DNA from: a virus
IMG/VR virus record: IMGVR_UViG_3300022758_000011
Location: 1 to 5,445 of that record
Length of the DNA stretch: 5,445 bases
Strand: one strand, 5' to 3'
A program made the position numbers and the translations under genes. Positions 128 to 4,765 of the stretch are shown here, in pieces; positions within the stretch are counted from its first letter, which is position 1; the number at the start of each line of letters is the position of its first letter. The notes below the pieces were generated by a model. The model worked only from the letters and a program-made list of their open reading frames with translations, did not search any database and was not told where the DNA came from.

Positions 128-354
128 CAATCTCCGGCACAGTAGCAAACTACAGCAAGACAAAAGCCGAAAGCTGGTCATGGACAGACTCGCACGGAGA
201 GCAACATAGTAGCGGCTACAACAGCTATCAAACGGACTTTCCGGACTTAAGTCAGTGGTTCAACCAAAACAGCAACAGCGGCAAACAAACCGCAACAAGT
301 AGCAAGAGAGATAAAGACGGCTTCGGCGGAAGCAGAGGAGGCAGTTTTAAATGA
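1..354 (+). CDS. VP2: VP2 DNA pilot / minor capsid protein, C-terminal part (wraps from 4869-5318; full protein 267 aa)
   Basis: Position 1 is codon position 1 of the frame opened at ATG 4869 ([19 protein letters not shown]...). The frame runs in phase into track ORF 121-354 and stops at TGA 352-354, overlapping the VP4 ATG as ATGA. The Gly/Ser/Gln-rich tail is typical of gokushovirus VP2. Confidence 0.9.
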   Translation, partial: AGLNPILAYQQGGASTPGGAQGSIGQSSISAPSVGTQSSSMPTISGTVANYSKTKAESWSWTDSHGEQHSSGYNSYQTDFPDLSQWFNQNSNSGKQTATSSKRDKDGFGGSRGGSFK

Positions 355-1373
355 GTTGTGCAAGACCACTAATAAGAGTATACAATCCAAACGACCACAA
401 TATAACGGGGTCCATCATGACGCTGGAAACGTACCGCGAAAGGGCGCACAATCCAACAGCAACGTATGAAAGCATTGCGTACAGGACAGACGTGATGTTA
501 CTGCCATGTGGCAAATGTCTGGGATGTAGACTCAGACAACGGCAGGATTGGGAAACAAGAATGCTGATGGAGTCAAAAACACTGTCACCAGTATGGTTTT
601 TAACTCTGACCTGGAATCAAGAGTACGTCCCGGGCATGGTAAGAGCAACCGGCGAGATCATAAGAGGTGCAACACACCAGTGGACGAACGGAGAAGCACC
701 GGAAGTCGTGCAAATACTACTGCAGGAAGACATGGTACGCTTTAACAAGAGACTACGCAAAAAGCAAGAAACGTCCGATAAATGGGGCTTAGACCTAAGA
801 TATTTTTATTGTGGCGAATACGGCGAAAACACGGGCAGACCACATCACCACGGCATTTATTACGGTTTGGAAATTCCAGATCTCAAGAAAAAAAGGGGTG
901 ATAATCCGTACTTCGAAAGCGAAGAGATAAACAAAATCTGGGGAATGGGTAACGTCATCATTGCAGAGGCATCACCAGAAACAATGGCTTATGTAGCAGG
1001 ATACGTAACAAAAAAGACATATGGAAACGACAACAAAAGATATAGGGAGCTAGGCTTAACACCGCCTTATTGTTGTATGTCGAGGAATCCGGGTTTAGGC
1101 TACGACTACTACACGAGCCACAAAAAACAGATGTACACAGATGATGGACTATATTTTAACGGCAAAAAAAGACCGATACCACGATACTTTGATAAAAAGT
1201 ACGAAAGTGAGCATCCGGAAGATCTGTGGGAAACGAAACGTAAAAGGCAGACAAGCGCAATCAACGCGCTAAAGCTCAAAATGAGCAATACAGGGCTGAC
1301 CATCGAACAAGAAGCAAAAGTGGAAGAAGAGACGAAACAGCAGAGGTTTAGAAAAGCCAGAGGGCTGTTATAG
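351..1373 (+). CDS. VP4: VP4 replication initiation protein (HUH rolling-circle endonuclease)
   Basis: This is a 340-aa ORF with SD GAGGAGG at 335-341, 9 nt upstream of the ATG. It has a Cys cluster CGKCLGC (507-527), motif 1 FLTLTW, an HUH-type motif RPHHHGIYY (His codons 843-851), and a two-tyrosine catalytic motif YVAGYVTKK (Tyr codons 990-992 and 1002-1004) spaced like phiX174 gpA YVAKYV. Confidence 0.95.
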   Translation: MSCARPLIRVYNPNDHNITGSIMTLETYRERAHNPTATYESIAYRTDVMLLPCGKCLGCRLRQRQDWETRMLMESKTLSPVWFLTLTWNQEYVPGMVRATGEIIRGATHQWTNGEAPEVVQILLQEDMVRFNKRLRKKQETSDKWGLDLRYFYCGEYGENTGRPHHHGIYYGLEIPDLKKKRGDNPYFESEEINKIWGMGNVIIAEASPETMAYVAGYVTKKTYGNDNKRYRELGLTPPYCCMSRNPGLGYDYYTSHKKQMYTDDGLYFNGKKRPIPRYFDKKYESEHPEDLWETKRKRQTSAINALKLKMSNTGLTIEQEAKVEEETKQQRFRKARGLL

Positions 1374-1524: not shown

Positions 1525-1559
1525 CGAGGTACGAGACAAATCATAGGTTCAATTACGAT

Positions 1560-1601
1560 CACGCGCACGCACGCGCGAAACGCGCACGCACGCACGTGTA
1601 T
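1560..1601. repeat. Two alternating purine-pyrimidine (CG/CA) tracts containing a 14-nt direct repeat ACGCGCACGCACGC
   Basis: Strict Pu/Py alternation holds over 1560-1577 (18 nt) and 1580-1601 (22 nt). ACGCGCACGCACGC occurs at 1561-1574 and 1580-1593. There is a central GCGCG-AAA-CGCGC mini-palindrome and a CACGTG palindrome at 1593-1598. Confidence 0.85.
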
Positions 1602-1610
1602 TTGCAAACA

Positions 1611-1633
1611 TCATCTATTATATATAACTTGTT
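1611..1633. other. AT-rich element with the 10-bp perfect palindrome TTATATATAA (1618-1627); candidate unwinding element
   Basis: The sequence TCATCTATTATATATAACTTGTT is read directly. It is the most AT-rich short patch of the region and sits immediately 5' of the TAG-trinucleotide run. It contains AACTTG at 1626-1631. Confidence 0.35.
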
Positions 1634-1634
1634 G

Positions 1635-1649
1635 TAGTAGTAGTGGTAG
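1635..1649 (+). repeat. Trinucleotide run TAG-TAG-TAG-TGG-TAG (DnaA-trio-like)
   Basis: This is a direct read. It is separated by GCAC (1650-1653) from TGTGGAAAA (1654-1662). The published DnaA-trio is 3'-GAT-5', which reads 5'-TAG-3' on that strand, and it lies between a DnaA box and an AT-rich region. Confidence 0.35.
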
Positions 1650-1653
1650 GCAC

Positions 1654-1828
1654 TGTGGAAAAGTTGAAAACGATAATGATTCTTCGTTATCACGTGAAAA
1701 TTAAGAATTATTCGCAGTTGAAAACTTTGTTGAAAACTTGTTGAAATGTTGAAACACTTTAGCAGACTAAAATCTATTGCGTATAACGATGTTGAAAAGT
1801 ATGTGGAAAATGTTGAAACTGTTGAAAA
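1654..1828 (+). repeat. Same-orientation iteron array: TGTGGAAAA x2 plus (T)GTTGAAA(A/C/T) x8 (DnaA-box-like 9-mers)
   Basis: TGTGGAAAA occurs at 1654-1662 and 1802-1810. GTTGAAA starts at 1663, 1717, 1729, 1740, 1748, 1791, 1812 and 1821, with a degenerate GTGAAAA at 1694. Spacings are 8-12 nt, and 1802-1828 is three abutting 9-mers. I found no GTTGAAA elsewhere in the window by eye. All copies are on the + strand. Confidence 0.85.
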
Positions 1829-1856: not shown

Positions 1857-1915
1857 AACCGTTCCGAAGCCGTCAACGCTTACGCGTTGCCACCTTCGAA
1901 GCGGTTAAAATTTTT
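1857..1915 (+). terminator. Long imperfect hairpin followed by AAAATTTTT; candidate terminator or insulator just upstream of the promoter
   Basis: The lower stem 1857-1869 / 1894-1906 has 13 positions: 11 Watson-Crick pairs, 1 G-T and 1 mismatch. Above an internal loop, the upper stem CAACGC (1874-1879) / GCGTTG (1884-1889) closes on the TTAC loop. A T5 run follows at 1911-1915. Confidence 0.5.
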
Positions 1916-1924
1916 ACGAAAAAC

Positions 1925-1952
1925 TTGAAAATAAACAAAAAAATGATATAAT
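1925..1952 (+). promoter_or_regulatory. Sigma70/SigA-type promoter with extended -10: TTGAAA - 16 nt - TGaTATAAT
   Basis: The -35 is TTGAAA (1925-1930). The TG is at 1944-1945 and the consensus -10 TATAAT at 1947-1952. The upstream flank (1907-1923) is A/T-rich. It lies about 35 nt upstream of the strongest SD in the genome (AAGGAGG, 1973-1979). Confidence 0.75.
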
Positions 1953-1985: not shown

Positions 1986-2192
1986 ATGGACAACCACGCA
2001 TACTACCAGCTATACAAAGGATACAGAGGACCAAAAACAGAGGATGAATATGAATACACCATCAAAAAGCTTTACAGACAGCTCAAAAAAGCGTATACTT
2101 TAGATGAGGCGAAAGCCATCATTGACGAAATCTACAAATACAAAGGCCAAAAGGCAGAAATGGAGCTGAACAAATGGCAATCATCAGTGTGA
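1986..2192 (+). CDS. Hypothetical 68-aa tyrosine-rich, charged protein (ORFan); first gene after the promoter
   Basis: SD AAGGAGG (1973-1979) lies 6 nt upstream of the ATG. The protein has 10 Tyr in 68 aa, is Lys/Glu-rich with predicted helical character, and has no hydrophobic segment. I recognise no family for it. Confidence 0.7.
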   Translation: MDNHAYYQLYKGYRGPKTEDEYEYTIKKLYRQLKKAYTLDEAKAIIDEIYKYKGQKAEMELNKWQSSV

Positions 2193-2293
2193 AAGAAGTC
2201 AAGAACGCCATCAAAATCATGATGGAGATCCTGGAAAAGCTGGATGCAATTTACCACGCACTACACGACAAGGAGGACGAAAGCAATGGCTAA
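2174..2293 (+). CDS. Possible 39-aa small protein (amphipathic helix), not in the ORF track
   Basis: ATG 2174 has GGAG (2162-2165) 8 nt upstream. The product is MAIISVKEVKNAIKIMMEILEKLDAIYHALHDKEDESNG. The start overlaps the end of the previous ORF, and the stop TAA 2291-2293 overlaps the next ATG (ATGGCTAA), which fits a translational-coupling chain. It is short, so uncertain. Confidence 0.4.
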   Translation: MAIISVKEVKNAIKIMMEILEKLDAIYHALHDKEDESNG

Positions 2294-2647: not shown

Positions 2648-3116
2648 GTTCAGAAGCGCATACAGCGGCCACGTGAGACATACGAGTCCAACCGGGAACG
2701 GACACGAGCCCGAATACGAGTACAAAGTAACCGAAACCGGCAGAGAGTTGGTAAAAACCGGCGAAACAGACATCTATGCACTCATCCAGAGCCGTCTCGA
2801 TGAAACCAAAATCGAAAACATCATCAAAAGAGCAACCTACGATCCGGCGGCGCTGGGCAGCCAGGAATGGCAGAACAGTGCACAGATGGTAGACATCACC
2901 GACGTGCCGACGGACTACCACACATGGTACAACCGCATAGAGGACGCAAAGAAGCAGTTTGAAGCGCTGCCCATCGAAGTCAAAAACAAGTGGGACAACG
3001 ATGTGGAAAAATACATCATGGCCTATGGAACCCAAGAGTGGGCAGACAAAATGGGCATAGCAAAACAGAAAGCCGAAGCGGAAAAACCGGCTGAAAAAAG
3101 TGAGGTGAAAGAATGA
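2640..3116 (+). CDS. VP3: VP3 internal scaffolding protein (158 aa from ATG 2640; the track's GTG 2625 start is less likely)
   Basis: GAGGG (2627-2631) lies 8 nt upstream of ATG 2640, which overlaps the upstream stop (ATGAGTGA). The C-terminal AKKQFEALPIEVKNKWDNDVEKYI resembles the conserved F..LP..(V/I)(R/K)..(F/W).N(D)... block of gokushovirus VP3. The stop overlaps the VP1 ATG as ATGA. Confidence 0.9.
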   Translation: MSEFRSAYSGHVRHTSPTGNGHEPEYEYKVTETGRELVKTGETDIYALIQSRLDETKIENIIKRATYDPAALGSQEWQNSAQMVDITDVPTDYHTWYNRIEDAKKQFEALPIEVKNKWDNDVEKYIMAYGTQEWADKMGIAKQKAEAEKPAEKSEVKE

Positions 3117-4765
3117 ACCGCAACAGTGAATACAACTTTGCACAGAATCCGCAGGTCGGAGTAAGCCGCAGCCGATTCCAACGCAACAGTGACAACAAAA
3201 CCACCTTTAATACCGGCGATCTCATCCCGATCTATCTGGATGAGGTGTTGCCGGGCGATACGCACCAAATCGACGTTGCCTGTGTCATGCGAATGGCGAC
3301 ACCCATCTTTCCTGTGATGGACAACGCCTTCTGCGACTTCTATTTCTTCTTCGTGCCTAACCGCTTGCTCTGGGAACATTGGAAGGAGTTCATGGGCGAG
3401 AACAAAGAAACCGCATGGACGCCCAAAACAGAATACAGCATACCGCAGGTGACGGCACCAAAAGGCGGATGGGCTGAGGGTACGCTAGCAGACTATCTGG
3501 GTCTGCCTACCAAAGTCGAGGGAATCAGCGTGAGCGCTCTGCCGGGCCGAGCCTATGGCCTTATCTACAACGAGTGGTTTCGAAACCAAAACGTCACACA
3601 GCCGACTCTCGTAGAGGTGACGGACGCGACCACGACCGGAAAAAACGACGGCAGTAATACCAACGACAGCGCAATCACGTTGGCAAAGCCTCTTAAGGCG
3701 GCAAAGGTGTTCGACTACTACACCGGGGCGCTGCCAGAACCTCAGAAAGGCGAGCCAATTACAATCCCGATAACGGGGAGCGCGCCAATCGGATTATATA
3801 ACGCCGCCACAGGAGACGTGACAACCAATTCAGCGAAGATGAAGGAAATCTTCGCTGATGCAGGGCTTGTCGCAACAAATGGGACATATCAAGCGAGTTA
3901 CTGGGATCCGGGTGACGGGCCAACAGCAAACCAAGGCTTAGCGGTGGGAAATACAACCGGCAGCATCTACAGGGGCGTAAGCCTCGGCGCAGACCTATCA
4001 AGCGTAAATGCAACAACCATCAACCAGCTGCGACAGGCATTCCAGATCCAGAAACTGTTGGAAAAAGACGCACGCGGCGGCACGAGATACCGCGAGGTAT
4101 TGCGTGAGCACTTTGGAGTTATCTCACCCGACAGCCGAATGCAAATTCCGGAGTATCTGGGCGGCTACAGACTGCCTATCAACGTGTCACAGGTTATCCA
4201 GACTTCTTCGACCGACAACACAAGCCCGCTGGGCAACACGGCGGCGCTGAGTGTGACCACGATGAACAAACCTATGTTTACCAAGTCCTTCACGGAACAC
4301 GGCTTTATCATGGGGCTCGCAGTTGTCCGTACTGACCAGACGTACCAGCAGGGCATCGACCGCATGTGGAGTCGTAAAGGCCGGTACGACTACTATTGGC
4401 CGGTACTGGCGAACATCGGTGAGCAAGCAATTCTAAACAAAGAGATCTATGCAGAAGGAAACCCAAATGACGACAAGGCATTTGGATACCAAGAAGCATG
4501 GGCCGATTACAGGTACAAGCCAAGCAAAGTAACGGGCCTGTTCAGGAGCAACGCAACGCAAAGCCTCGATGCATGGCACTATGCACAAGACTACAAATCC
4601 CTGCCATTCCTCGGAACGCAATGGATGGAGCAGGGCGACACCGAAATGAAGCGGACGTTAGCGGTGCAGAACCAGCCGGACTTTATCGCTGACTTCTACT
4701 TTATGAACAAAACAACGCGATGCATGCCGGTCTACAGTATTCCGGGACTTATCGACCATCATTAA
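3113..4765 (+). CDS. VP1: VP1 major capsid protein (F-like jelly-roll), 550 aa
   Basis: SD GAGGTG lies at 3102-3107. The N-terminal NPQVGVSRSRFQRNSDNKTTFNTGDLIPIYLDEVLPGDT closely mirrors the Chlamydia-phage/gokushovirus VP1 signature (KTTFDAGxLIPIxxDEVLPGDT). The size is typical. A variable Gly/Thr/Asn-rich insertion at about 3750-4010 sits where the gokushovirus three-fold protrusion loop lies. Confidence 0.97.
   Translation: MNRNSEYNFAQNPQVGVSRSRFQRNSDNKTTFNTGDLIPIYLDEVLPGDTHQIDVACVMRMATPIFPVMDNAFCDFYFFFVPNRLLWEHWKEFMGENKETAWTPKTEYSIPQVTAPKGGWAEGTLADYLGLPTKVEGISVSALPGRAYGLIYNEWFRNQNVTQPTLVEVTDATTTGKNDGSNTNDSAITLAKPLKAAKVFDYYTGALPEPQKGEPITIPITGSAPIGLYNAATGDVTTNSAKMKEIFADAGLVATNGTYQASYWDPGDGPTANQGLAVGNTTGSIYRGVSLGADLSSVNATTINQLRQAFQIQKLLEKDARGGTRYREVLREHFGVISPDSRMQIPEYLGGYRLPINVSQVIQTSSTDNTSPLGNTAALSVTTMNKPMFTKSFTEHGFIMGLAVVRTDQTYQQGIDRMWSRKGRYDYYWPVLANIGEQAILNKEIYAEGNPNDDKAFGYQEAWADYRYKPSKVTGLFRSNATQSLDAWHYAQDYKSLPFLGTQWMEQGDTEMKRTLAVQNQPDFIADFYFMNKTTRCMPVYSIPGLIDHH

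Follow-up and report, generated by a model that had tools for sequence, protein, structure and literature searches.

The DNA analysed here, the window, is the 5,445-nt virus record IMGVR_UViG_3300022758_000011 of IMG/VR. It represents the entire circular genome of a gokushovirus-type microvirus; its first 127 nt are repeated at the end, which gives a genome of 5,318 nt. This phage carries a cassette of ~230 nt (1599-1828) that is probably an element-for-element copy of the DnaA-dependent basal unwinding system (BUS) found between dnaA and dnaN in Clostridia, and that would recruit the DnaA of the host for opening of the replicative form and helicase loading. In order, the cassette consists of an AT-rich stretch, a run of TAG triplets (DnaA-trios), a 4-nt G/C gap, an overlapping pair of DnaA-type boxes and two phased arrays of four boxes each (Table 1). 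The original prediction had described only the core of this cassette, 1611-1662, as the mimic of a minimal origin-unwinding system. The idea of a mimic is supported, but the unit is ~230 nt with ten boxes and not 52 nt with one. Judged from sequence comparison, the closest match for the cassette appears to be the origin type of Ruminococcus/Oscillospiraceae.

All of the elements that had been predicted in the core, the AT-rich segment with its palindrome, the trio run, GCAC and the box at 1654-1662, lie exactly where they had been placed. The AT-rich sequence TCATCTATTATATATAACTTGTT (1611-1633) includes the perfect palindrome TTATATATAA (1618-1627), and the least stable 20-bp duplex of the entire genome is found within 1610-1630 (z = 3.2). 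The complement of the trio run contains two TnnT motifs that resemble the DnaD recognition element (DRE). The first box of the pair, TGTGGAAAA (1654-1662), has one mismatch to TTATCCACA and fits TTWTNCACA; the second, AGTTGAAAA (1662-1670), has three mismatches to the DnaA-box consensus. All ten boxes are on the plus strand, there is no inverted box in the window, and most boxes differ from TTATCCACA at two or more positions. Boxes are over-represented: with up to one mismatch allowed, we found 5 matches to the DnaA box versus 0.92 expected and 15 matches to GTTGAAAA versus 5.85 expected, 10 of the latter co-oriented within 1655-1828. Moreover, the 36-nt family consensus (TAG)5-N4-TGTGGAAAAGTTGAAAA matched the window once, with one mismatch, versus no match in 200 shuffles.

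A coding region over the trios, which would have spoken against the original prediction, was considered and rejected: the frames open across the trios range from 18 to 264 codons among 59 relatives, and the two window ORFs that overlie the region have no PHROG family. An Rfam scan of the whole window (E <= 1) did not reveal any RNA family, and 1600-1665 lacks structure in single-stranded form (-2.2 kcal/mol, z = +0.9). Since there is neither a conserved ORF nor an Rfam family nor a single-strand structure, the region fits a protein-binding element that acts on duplex DNA.

Pelliciari et al. (2021; PMC8287927) list predicted BUS sequences in their Supplementary Table S1, where the trio strand is given 3'->5', and the criteria for a BUS were taken from the same study. 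Turned 5'->3', these entries (PMC8287927) read TAGTAGAAGTAATAGTAG GGCC TGTGGATT TGTGGATAA in Bacillus subtilis, TAGTAATAGTAGTAG GTGC TGTGGATT GGTGGATAA in Staphylococcus aureus (with a trio run ending in TAGTAGTAG), ..TAGTAGTAG GGAG TGTGGATT TGTTGATAA in Clostridium acetobutylicum and (TAG)6 GGCT TGTTGATA TGTTAATAA in Clostridium botulinum. In the same layout, the window reads TAGTAGTAGTGGTAG GCAC TGTGGAAA AGTTGAAAA. Its strand polarity, 4-nt G/C gap and tandem boxes equal those of all four species. Written 3'->5', the gaps of the Firmicutes BUS are CCGG, CGTG, GAGG and TCGG, and the phage gap is the same in length and kind. The box pair of the phage has the 8+9 overlapping tandem geometry that is present in B. 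subtilis (TTAGGTGT + AATAGGTGT), S. aureus and C. acetobutylicum. The claim that order and strand polarity are those of the bacterial origin module therefore agrees with published BUS sequences as well as with real bacterial origins. The comparison with Escherichia coli that accompanied this claim was also right (the entry reads 5'-TATTAGGAT CGCACTGCCC TGTGGATAA), but the origin of Clostridia/Firmicutes is a much closer model.

The individual BUS criteria lead to the same picture. A first box must have no more than two mismatches to TTATCCACA, as TGTGGAAAA does, and a second one must be adjacent and co-oriented in the Firmicutes tandem geometry with no more than four mismatches, as AGTTGAAAA is. 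The spacer, which may be up to 16 nt long and is G/C-rich and ~4 nt, is GCAC. At least three consecutive NAN trinucleotides (consensus 3'-GAT-5') are required 5' of the box, on the strand where the box reads 5'-TGTGGATAA, and are found there, and AT-rich DNA lies beyond the trios, at 1599-1634. A TGG triplet breaks the run beside the box in the window, and the trio rule then still holds with a spacer of 10 nt, as long as the one in the E. coli entry. A chromosome origin would lie beside dnaA/dnaN, whereas the phage module lies between VP4 and the structural genes. Thus, the phage module would work like a BUS, or copies one, but is no oriC.

The GTDB representatives, one genome per species, were scanned with the phage-derived 30-nt pattern TAGTAGTAG-N4-TGTKGAAANGTTGAWAA, for which chance alone would give roughly 0.1 to a few matches. 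The scan returned 51 bacterial loci, 50 of them in Bacillota; the exception was a Blastocatellia metagenome-assembled genome. Oscillospiraceae, Ruminococcus, Lachnospiraceae, Clostridium and Selenomonas were represented, among others, and cultured isolates were included. Fifty of the 51 loci adjoin dnaA and/or dnaN, and in all 35 loci that hold both genes within the stored 8 kb, the match is located between the two. The flanking proteins were identified by Pfam as DnaA and the beta-clamp, and neither VP1 nor VP4 was present in any of the 51 bacterial loci. Since 50 of the 51 matches are at dnaA/dnaN, the 30-nt core of the phage is, by sequence, a chromosome-origin signature of these bacteria.

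Likeness was greatest to the origins of Ruminococcus/Oscillospiraceae. Several of these have the core TAGTAGTAGGGGCTGTGGAAAAGTTGAAAA (26-30 nt), which is identical in some relatives of the phage, and they share with the phage the TGTTGAAA-type boxes (the TGTTGAAAA box type), arranged in dense co-oriented arrays of similar phasing; as in the phage, their first array stands at +62/63 and +73/74 from the first box. The phage differs from these origins in that they contain 14-18 boxes per 400 nt, have additional inverted TTTTCAACA boxes and do not contain ATAACTTGTTG. Beyond the motifs, no extended nucleotide homology was detected between the phage and the bacterial origins, the longest matches being 36-39 nt. 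Since all matches are motif-sized (<=39 nt), a recent capture from one of the sampled genomes is not demonstrated. Nor was there evidence of a known plasmid replicon: a distant blastn search with 1596-1832 against 72,556 plasmids gave only four weak matches of 37 nt, in Acinetobacter.

The box type is accompanied by a particular form of the initiator. In these Ruminococcus and Oscillospiraceae genomes, the recognition helix of DnaA reads DHSTIVY or DHSTIKY, versus the canonical DHTTV[I/L]H, and this variant accompanies T-type boxes. Seven loci with TGTTGAAA-dominated origins encode GGRDHSTIVY(A/S), and the canonical GGRDHTTV(I/L)HA was seen in four other loci, and in more besides, in which TGTGGATAA-type boxes are dominant. 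This pattern may reflect co-variation of initiator and box in Oscillospirales, in a correlation that ignores phylogeny, and it points to TGTTGAAAA as the cognate DnaA box in hosts with a DHSTIVY-type helix. The host clade to which these comparisons point agrees with predictions from CRISPR spacers that gut gokushoviruses infect Clostridiales (PMC10159846).

Apart from bacteria and microviruses, (TAG)n runs with a 4-nt gap, tandem TGTGGATA and TGTGGATAA clusters were also seen in other viral loci (L066/L144, L132, L152, L155, L091, L149/L119 and L077). Their contigs are 36-95 kb long where the length is known, and neither dnaA nor dnaN lies in the locus fetched. Double-stranded DNA phages may therefore have BUS-like modules too. 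In L077, an ORF beside the module resembles the C-terminal domain of DnaA, judged by eye only.

More than 100 distinct microvirus sequences retain the cassette, and some of them encode a VP4 only 32-49% and a VP1 only 44-55% identical to those of the window. A pattern scan of IMG/VR yielded at least 120 DNA stretches; 117 new loci were examined, and 66 of these were microvirus contigs. In GenBank, 47 microvirus records matched; they come from faeces of pig, human, monkey, dog and other sources. In the one record examined (MG945423, pig faeces), the cassette region is unannotated. The module was present in all 29 distinct sequences of close relatives (VP4 83-98% identical). At least 103 of 105 distinct modules have TAG at trios #1-3 and #5, whereas trio #4 is variable. 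The selection pattern had already fixed TAG at #1, TA[A/G] at #3 and the AG of #5, and therefore only trio #2 is a fully free measure. The second box-proximal trio (1644-1646), which is TGG in the window, is TAG in 103 of the 105 distinct relatives and TAA in one; the TGG may represent an allele of reduced strength or an error in sequencing. All gaps are 4 nt long, with 72% G+C overall, and most of them read GGAG or GGGC. Trio register and box-to-trio spacing, whose loss in relatives would have spoken against the original prediction, are thus kept.

The arrays behave in the same way. The cores of the box pair are at 0 in 96% and at +8 in 91% of the modules, those of array 2 at +62, +74, +85 and +93 in 81-86%, and array 3 is conserved with a positional play of 1-2 nt. 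Some relatives have boxes switched to the perfect consensus TGTGGATAA. The spacer at 1671-1715 has a constant length in nearly all modules despite at least three unrelated sequence versions, which points to a need for strict phasing or to an unrecognised site in the middle; a small conserved ACG was seen near its centre. A conserved hairpin in this spacer was rejected, as the minimum free energy was mostly 0 to -5 kcal/mol and no structure was shared (14 of 84 variants folded). Fixed motifs separated by free spacers are the pattern expected of a protein-binding array under selection. Conservation also extends across 1623-1634 (>=0.9), where ATAACTTGTTG (1624-1634), a nearly invariant and phage-specific motif, abuts the trios. 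ACTTGTTGTAG is missing from relatives without the cassette and was not seen at the equivalent position in the bacterial origins shown. Ten relatives carry a 19-nt insert in array 3 with the inverted box TTTTCCACA, which is missing from the window. In the single strand, TTTTCCACA could pair with a nearby TGTGGAAAA and give a double-stranded DnaA box in a hairpin.

The presence of the cassette was surveyed in 80 genomes that had been chosen by VP1 alone. Close VP1 relatives had the module in 31 of 35 cases, the misses being three short contigs and one pattern miss. At 51-57% VP1 identity it was found in 6 of 45 genomes, plus one variant that the pattern had missed, and the cassette-less relatives of that distance have short non-coding regions and no box clusters. 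Close phage pairs that differ only by the cassette were not found in this sample, in which the best VP1 identity across the two groups was 57%. Of 66 genomes, 6 carry the whole cassette flipped with respect to the genes; it then occupies either its usual site or one ~85 nt upstream of VP4. Consequently, the TAG run lies on the packaged (+) strand in the window, as had been predicted, but this position is not conserved. Both orientations and the absence from many equally distant relatives argue for an accessory, self-contained double-strand element, and independence of gene orientation fits an action on duplex DNA. Moreover, many relatives have no cassette, which excludes it as the basic origin of VP4 rolling-circle replication in this group.

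The cassette has the order, polarity, geometry and conservation of a BUS and is identical in sequence to parts of real host origins. We propose that ATP-DnaA of the host would bind to the tandem box pair and the two phased arrays on the double-stranded replicative form. A DnaA filament would extend from there onto the TAG triplets of one strand, and the adjacent AT-rich stretch, the least stable duplex of the genome, would open (1599-1650). Binding and opening by host DnaA are likely. The bubble could then be used as at a Firmicute origin, with DnaD on the TnnT strand and DnaB/DnaI loading the replicative helicase; since the complement strand has the pair of TnnT motifs required by B. subtilis DnaD, helicase loading in the Firmicute style is conceivable. 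That the bubble does serve helicase loading or a replication start has a little less than an even chance. If so, the host initiator would start or boost duplex replication of the phage on top of VP4 rolling-circle replication, and phage replication would be tied to the initiation potential of the host. One may go further and speculate that a large clade of gut gokushoviruses captured the unwinding half of a Clostridia host origin, and that the replicative form is a DnaA-dependent mini-chromosome with a plasmid-like carrier state or a cell-cycle-coupled phase; we regard this as possible but rather doubtful.

Several points weigh against a role of the cassette as a DnaA-dependent unwinding system. 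It is dispensable for the basic microvirus cycle, as equally distant relatives do without it. The oriC2 half-origin of Clostridioides difficile alone is insufficient in vitro, and the phage has only that half; likewise, the dnaA-dnaN half-origins of B. subtilis and C. difficile alone do not suffice for autonomous replication or in vitro opening. The TGG trio of the window loses the central A, a change that is expected to weaken the element in B. subtilis. Binding of TGTTGAAAA by host DnaA is a prediction, derived from DoriC-type prediction and from the co-variation of helix and box. Finally, ATAACTTGTTG has no counterpart in the host origins compared and is left unexplained by the host-origin model.

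Ten co-oriented boxes within 175 nt on each of many copies of the replicative form could also act as a DnaA sink or sensor. The boxes would then titrate DnaA and shut down host initiation ('inc'-like), or regulate the nearby phage promoter. Indeed, multicopy DnaA-box regions of B. subtilis oriC inhibit initiation, DnaA is also a transcription factor, the cassette is accessory and not essential, and a strong promoter lies ~100 nt downstream of it. However, a sink or sensor needs boxes only, but the trios, a gap of exactly 4 nt, tandem boxes with starts 8 nt apart and an AT-rich flank, all of them specific for opening, are kept by selection as well. In addition, 6 of 66 genomes have the cassette in another orientation or place with respect to the promoter. 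We therefore consider a sink or sensor unlikely.

Still less probable is a DnaA-assisted start of rolling-circle replication, as the original prediction had proposed, in which opening exposes a VP4 nick site in ATAACTTGTTG or its complement CAACAAGTTAT and the cassette is the plus-strand origin. HUH nucleases require a single-stranded substrate, ATAACTTGTTG is phage-specific, nearly invariant and moves with the cassette even when this is inverted, and a nick site would explain the one feature outside the host-origin model. AACTTG also bears what we take to be a resemblance to the core CTTG^ATA of phiX174/pC194. But the likeness to phiX174 is a weak one of 6 nt, and AACTTGTTG also arises within the box arrays (repeat family D12). 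Furthermore, relatives with a homologous VP4 lack motif and cassette, the motif stays constant while VP4 diverges to 32% identity, and it varies in some modules (AATTTG, AAGTTG, TATTTG). A universal VP4 nick site at ACTTGTTG was rejected on the grounds that the motif is missing in 32 cassette-less relatives, and was kept only as a minority hypothesis.

Direct repeats beside an AT-rich region are typical of Rep-iteron origins, and most boxes deviate from TTATCCACA; the GTTGAAAA repeats could thus be iterons for VP4 or another phage protein, with only a coincidental likeness to DnaA boxes and trios, but this is very improbable, as the same repeats, TAG run, gap and spacing are found between dnaA and dnaN in bacteria without VP4, the repeats show no co-variation with VP4 over its range of 32-98% identity, unlike iterons with their Rep, and boxes become perfect TGTGGATAA in some relatives. 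The sequence is clearly host-like, and primosome assembly on single-stranded DNA can start from a DnaA box within a hairpin (the R6K A-site; engineered M13), but a single-strand (complementary-strand) origin, an assembly chimera or inert passenger host DNA have hardly any likelihood either: the core is unfolded and all boxes are co-oriented, contrary to an A-site hairpin, several metagenomes contributed more than 100 distinct contigs with the cassette, independent GenBank genomes (pig, human, monkey, dog) also have it, an overlap of 127 nt closes the window into a circle, and motifs are conserved while spacers diverge.

All recognisable genes of the phage are on the plus strand, and the cassette lies in the sole long non-coding region (1374-1985), just 3' of VP4 and before the structural genes. 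VP4, in whose translation the HHH and YxxxY motifs are readable, belongs to the context and not to the cassette; no record with exactly this VP4 was found. Two very stable hairpins were seen upstream of the cassette, one directly past the VP4 stop codon (1379-1415; -16.7 kcal/mol, z = -7.5), which is kept in relatives, and one at 1467-1498 (-14.4 kcal/mol, z = -4.9), followed by TTTCG; both are candidate terminators or a candidate complementary-strand origin. The ~180 nt upstream of the module (1416-1598) are optional and absent in many relatives. They end in an alternating tract with 71% G+C (1558-1598), which forms the left border of the AT-rich stretch. At this position, many relatives have a (CG/CA)n tract and others a G+C hairpin; no such tract was seen in the bacterial origins compared. 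The tract has Z-DNA-forming potential or could act as a G+C clamp. On the right flank of the cassette, the inverted repeat at 1857-1906 could be a terminator or insulator. The near-consensus promoter behind it precedes the downstream gene block, with the strong Shine-Dalgarno sequence AAGGAGGT ahead of the ATG at 1986; since promoter and Shine-Dalgarno sequence are of the Firmicutes type, they fit the host proposed above.

One small ORF of 39 aa co-occurs with the cassette. Its stop codon overlaps the ATG (2286) of a basic VP8/J-like ORF. By tblastn it was found in 34 of 58 distant cassette-bearing genomes versus 0 of 32 cassette-less ones, and 32 of the 34 matches were 47-80% identical, while VP1 and VP4 were only ~45% identical. 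No PHROG or Pfam family matched it. The ORF could be a partner of the cassette or a mere lineage marker, and its membership in the cassette is uncertain.

Table 1. Features of the cassette and its surroundings in the window
Feature	Position	Strand	Details
VP2 pilot protein	spans both window ends	+	
VP4, HUH rolling-circle replication initiator	351-1373	+	PHROG 942, E = 8e-104; Pfam PF23343 REP_ORF2-G2P
G+C-rich alternating purine/pyrimidine tract	1558-1598		two 17-nt direct repeats, ACGCGCACGCACGCGCG / ACGCGCACGCACGCACG (family D5), 94% identical
AT-rich candidate unwinding element	1599-1634		78% A+T versus 52% in the genome
DnaA-trio run, TAG TAG TAG TGG TAG (3'-GAT-5' repeats)	1635-1649	+	
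4-nt G/C gap, GCAC	1650-1653		
Tandem co-oriented DnaA-type boxes, TGTGGAAAA and AGTTGAAAA	1654-1670	+	starts 8 nt apart
Spacer of fixed length and free sequence	1671-1715		from box pair to array 2
Box array 2: AGTTGAAAA, TGTTGAAAA, TGTTGAAAT, TGTTGAAAC	1716-1755	+	starts at 1716, 1728, 1739, 1747
Box array 3: TGTTGAAAA, TGTGGAAAA, TGTTGAAAC, TGTTGAAAA	1790-1828	+	starts at 1790, 1802, 1811, 1820
G+C-rich inverted repeat, then A/T run	1857-1906	+	I2; 23-nt arms, 78% complementary; -17.7 kcal/mol, z = -1.8
Sigma-70/sigma-A type promoter, TTGAAA-16-TGATATAAT	1925-1952	+	11/12 matches plus TG extension (extended -10)
39-aa ORF, MAIISVKEVKNAIKIMMEILEKLDAIYHALHD...	2174-2293	+	co-occurs with cassette
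Small ORFs including VP5-like protein; VP3 scaffold protein		+	
VP1 capsid protein	3113-4765	+	

Microviruses are the textbook case of Rep-driven rolling-circle replication independent of DnaA. In the literature searched, we found no paper that links microviruses to DnaA boxes, and a search for gokushoviruses and DnaA returned only a paper on Rep evolution. Judged by their titles, none of the papers found for Microviridae, DnaA and origin of replication was on this subject, and for DnaA-trios in phages none appeared relevant by title and abstract. Hence, the module itself is known, but its occurrence in a single-stranded DNA phage with rolling-circle replication was not found in the searched literature. 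If the proposal holds, a widespread group of gut phages taps the master initiator of its host. In the more speculative case of a DnaA-dependent mini-chromosome, a rolling-circle single-stranded DNA phage would gain a second, theta-type origin. Origin mimicry would then also allow hosts to be assigned to uncultured phages from sequence, here Ruminococcus/Oscillospiraceae, and for abundant uncultured gut phages it would predict hosts of the Clostridia, Oscillospirales type. In addition, the phages offer more than 100 sequence-diverse natural BUS variants that have passed selection, with differences in trio #4, in the sequence of the gap, in T-type boxes and in the phasing of the arrays. Established strand-separation assays suit this module, which makes the idea directly testable.

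How does the cassette compare with known systems? Mobile elements that use host DnaA by way of DnaA boxes include P1 oriR, the lambda pR region, pSC101 and RK2. Unlike the phage cassette, they combine few boxes with an initiator of their own and iterons on double-stranded replicons, and we know of no report of the full module of box, gap, trios and DNA unwinding element in any of them. The A-site of the ABC-primosome likewise brings DnaA to a single-stranded DNA replicon, but its box is base-paired in a hairpin, whereas the phage region does not fold. Titration or regulatory sites of the datA/DBC type have a cluster of boxes that binds DnaA without opening; a box cluster is present in the cassette too, and the trios, gap and AT-rich flank that are conserved in addition go beyond the needs of such a site. 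The plus-strand origin of phiX174 is CAACTTG^ATATTAATAAC, which lies within a conserved origin sequence of ~30 nt that is nicked by Rep. AACTTG beside an AT-rich run and a Rep of the HUH class are common to phiX174 and our phage, but only the 6-mer is shared, and in our phage the motif is outside the Rep gene and specific for the cassette. The Firmicutes BUS is the closest system. Unlike it, the phage module resides in a 5.3-kb single-stranded DNA phage with its own HUH Rep, is not located beside dnaA, has one half-origin, the extra ATAACTTGTTG and a distal G+C-rich alternating tract, and occurs in either orientation. However, its TAG run is that of C. difficile oriC2 on the equivalent strand, trio #4 is the deviant trio in phages and Firmicutes origins alike, and both continue beyond the box pair with further box clusters. 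In B. subtilis, the BUS is made up of boxes #6/#7 of incC and the DnaA-trios.

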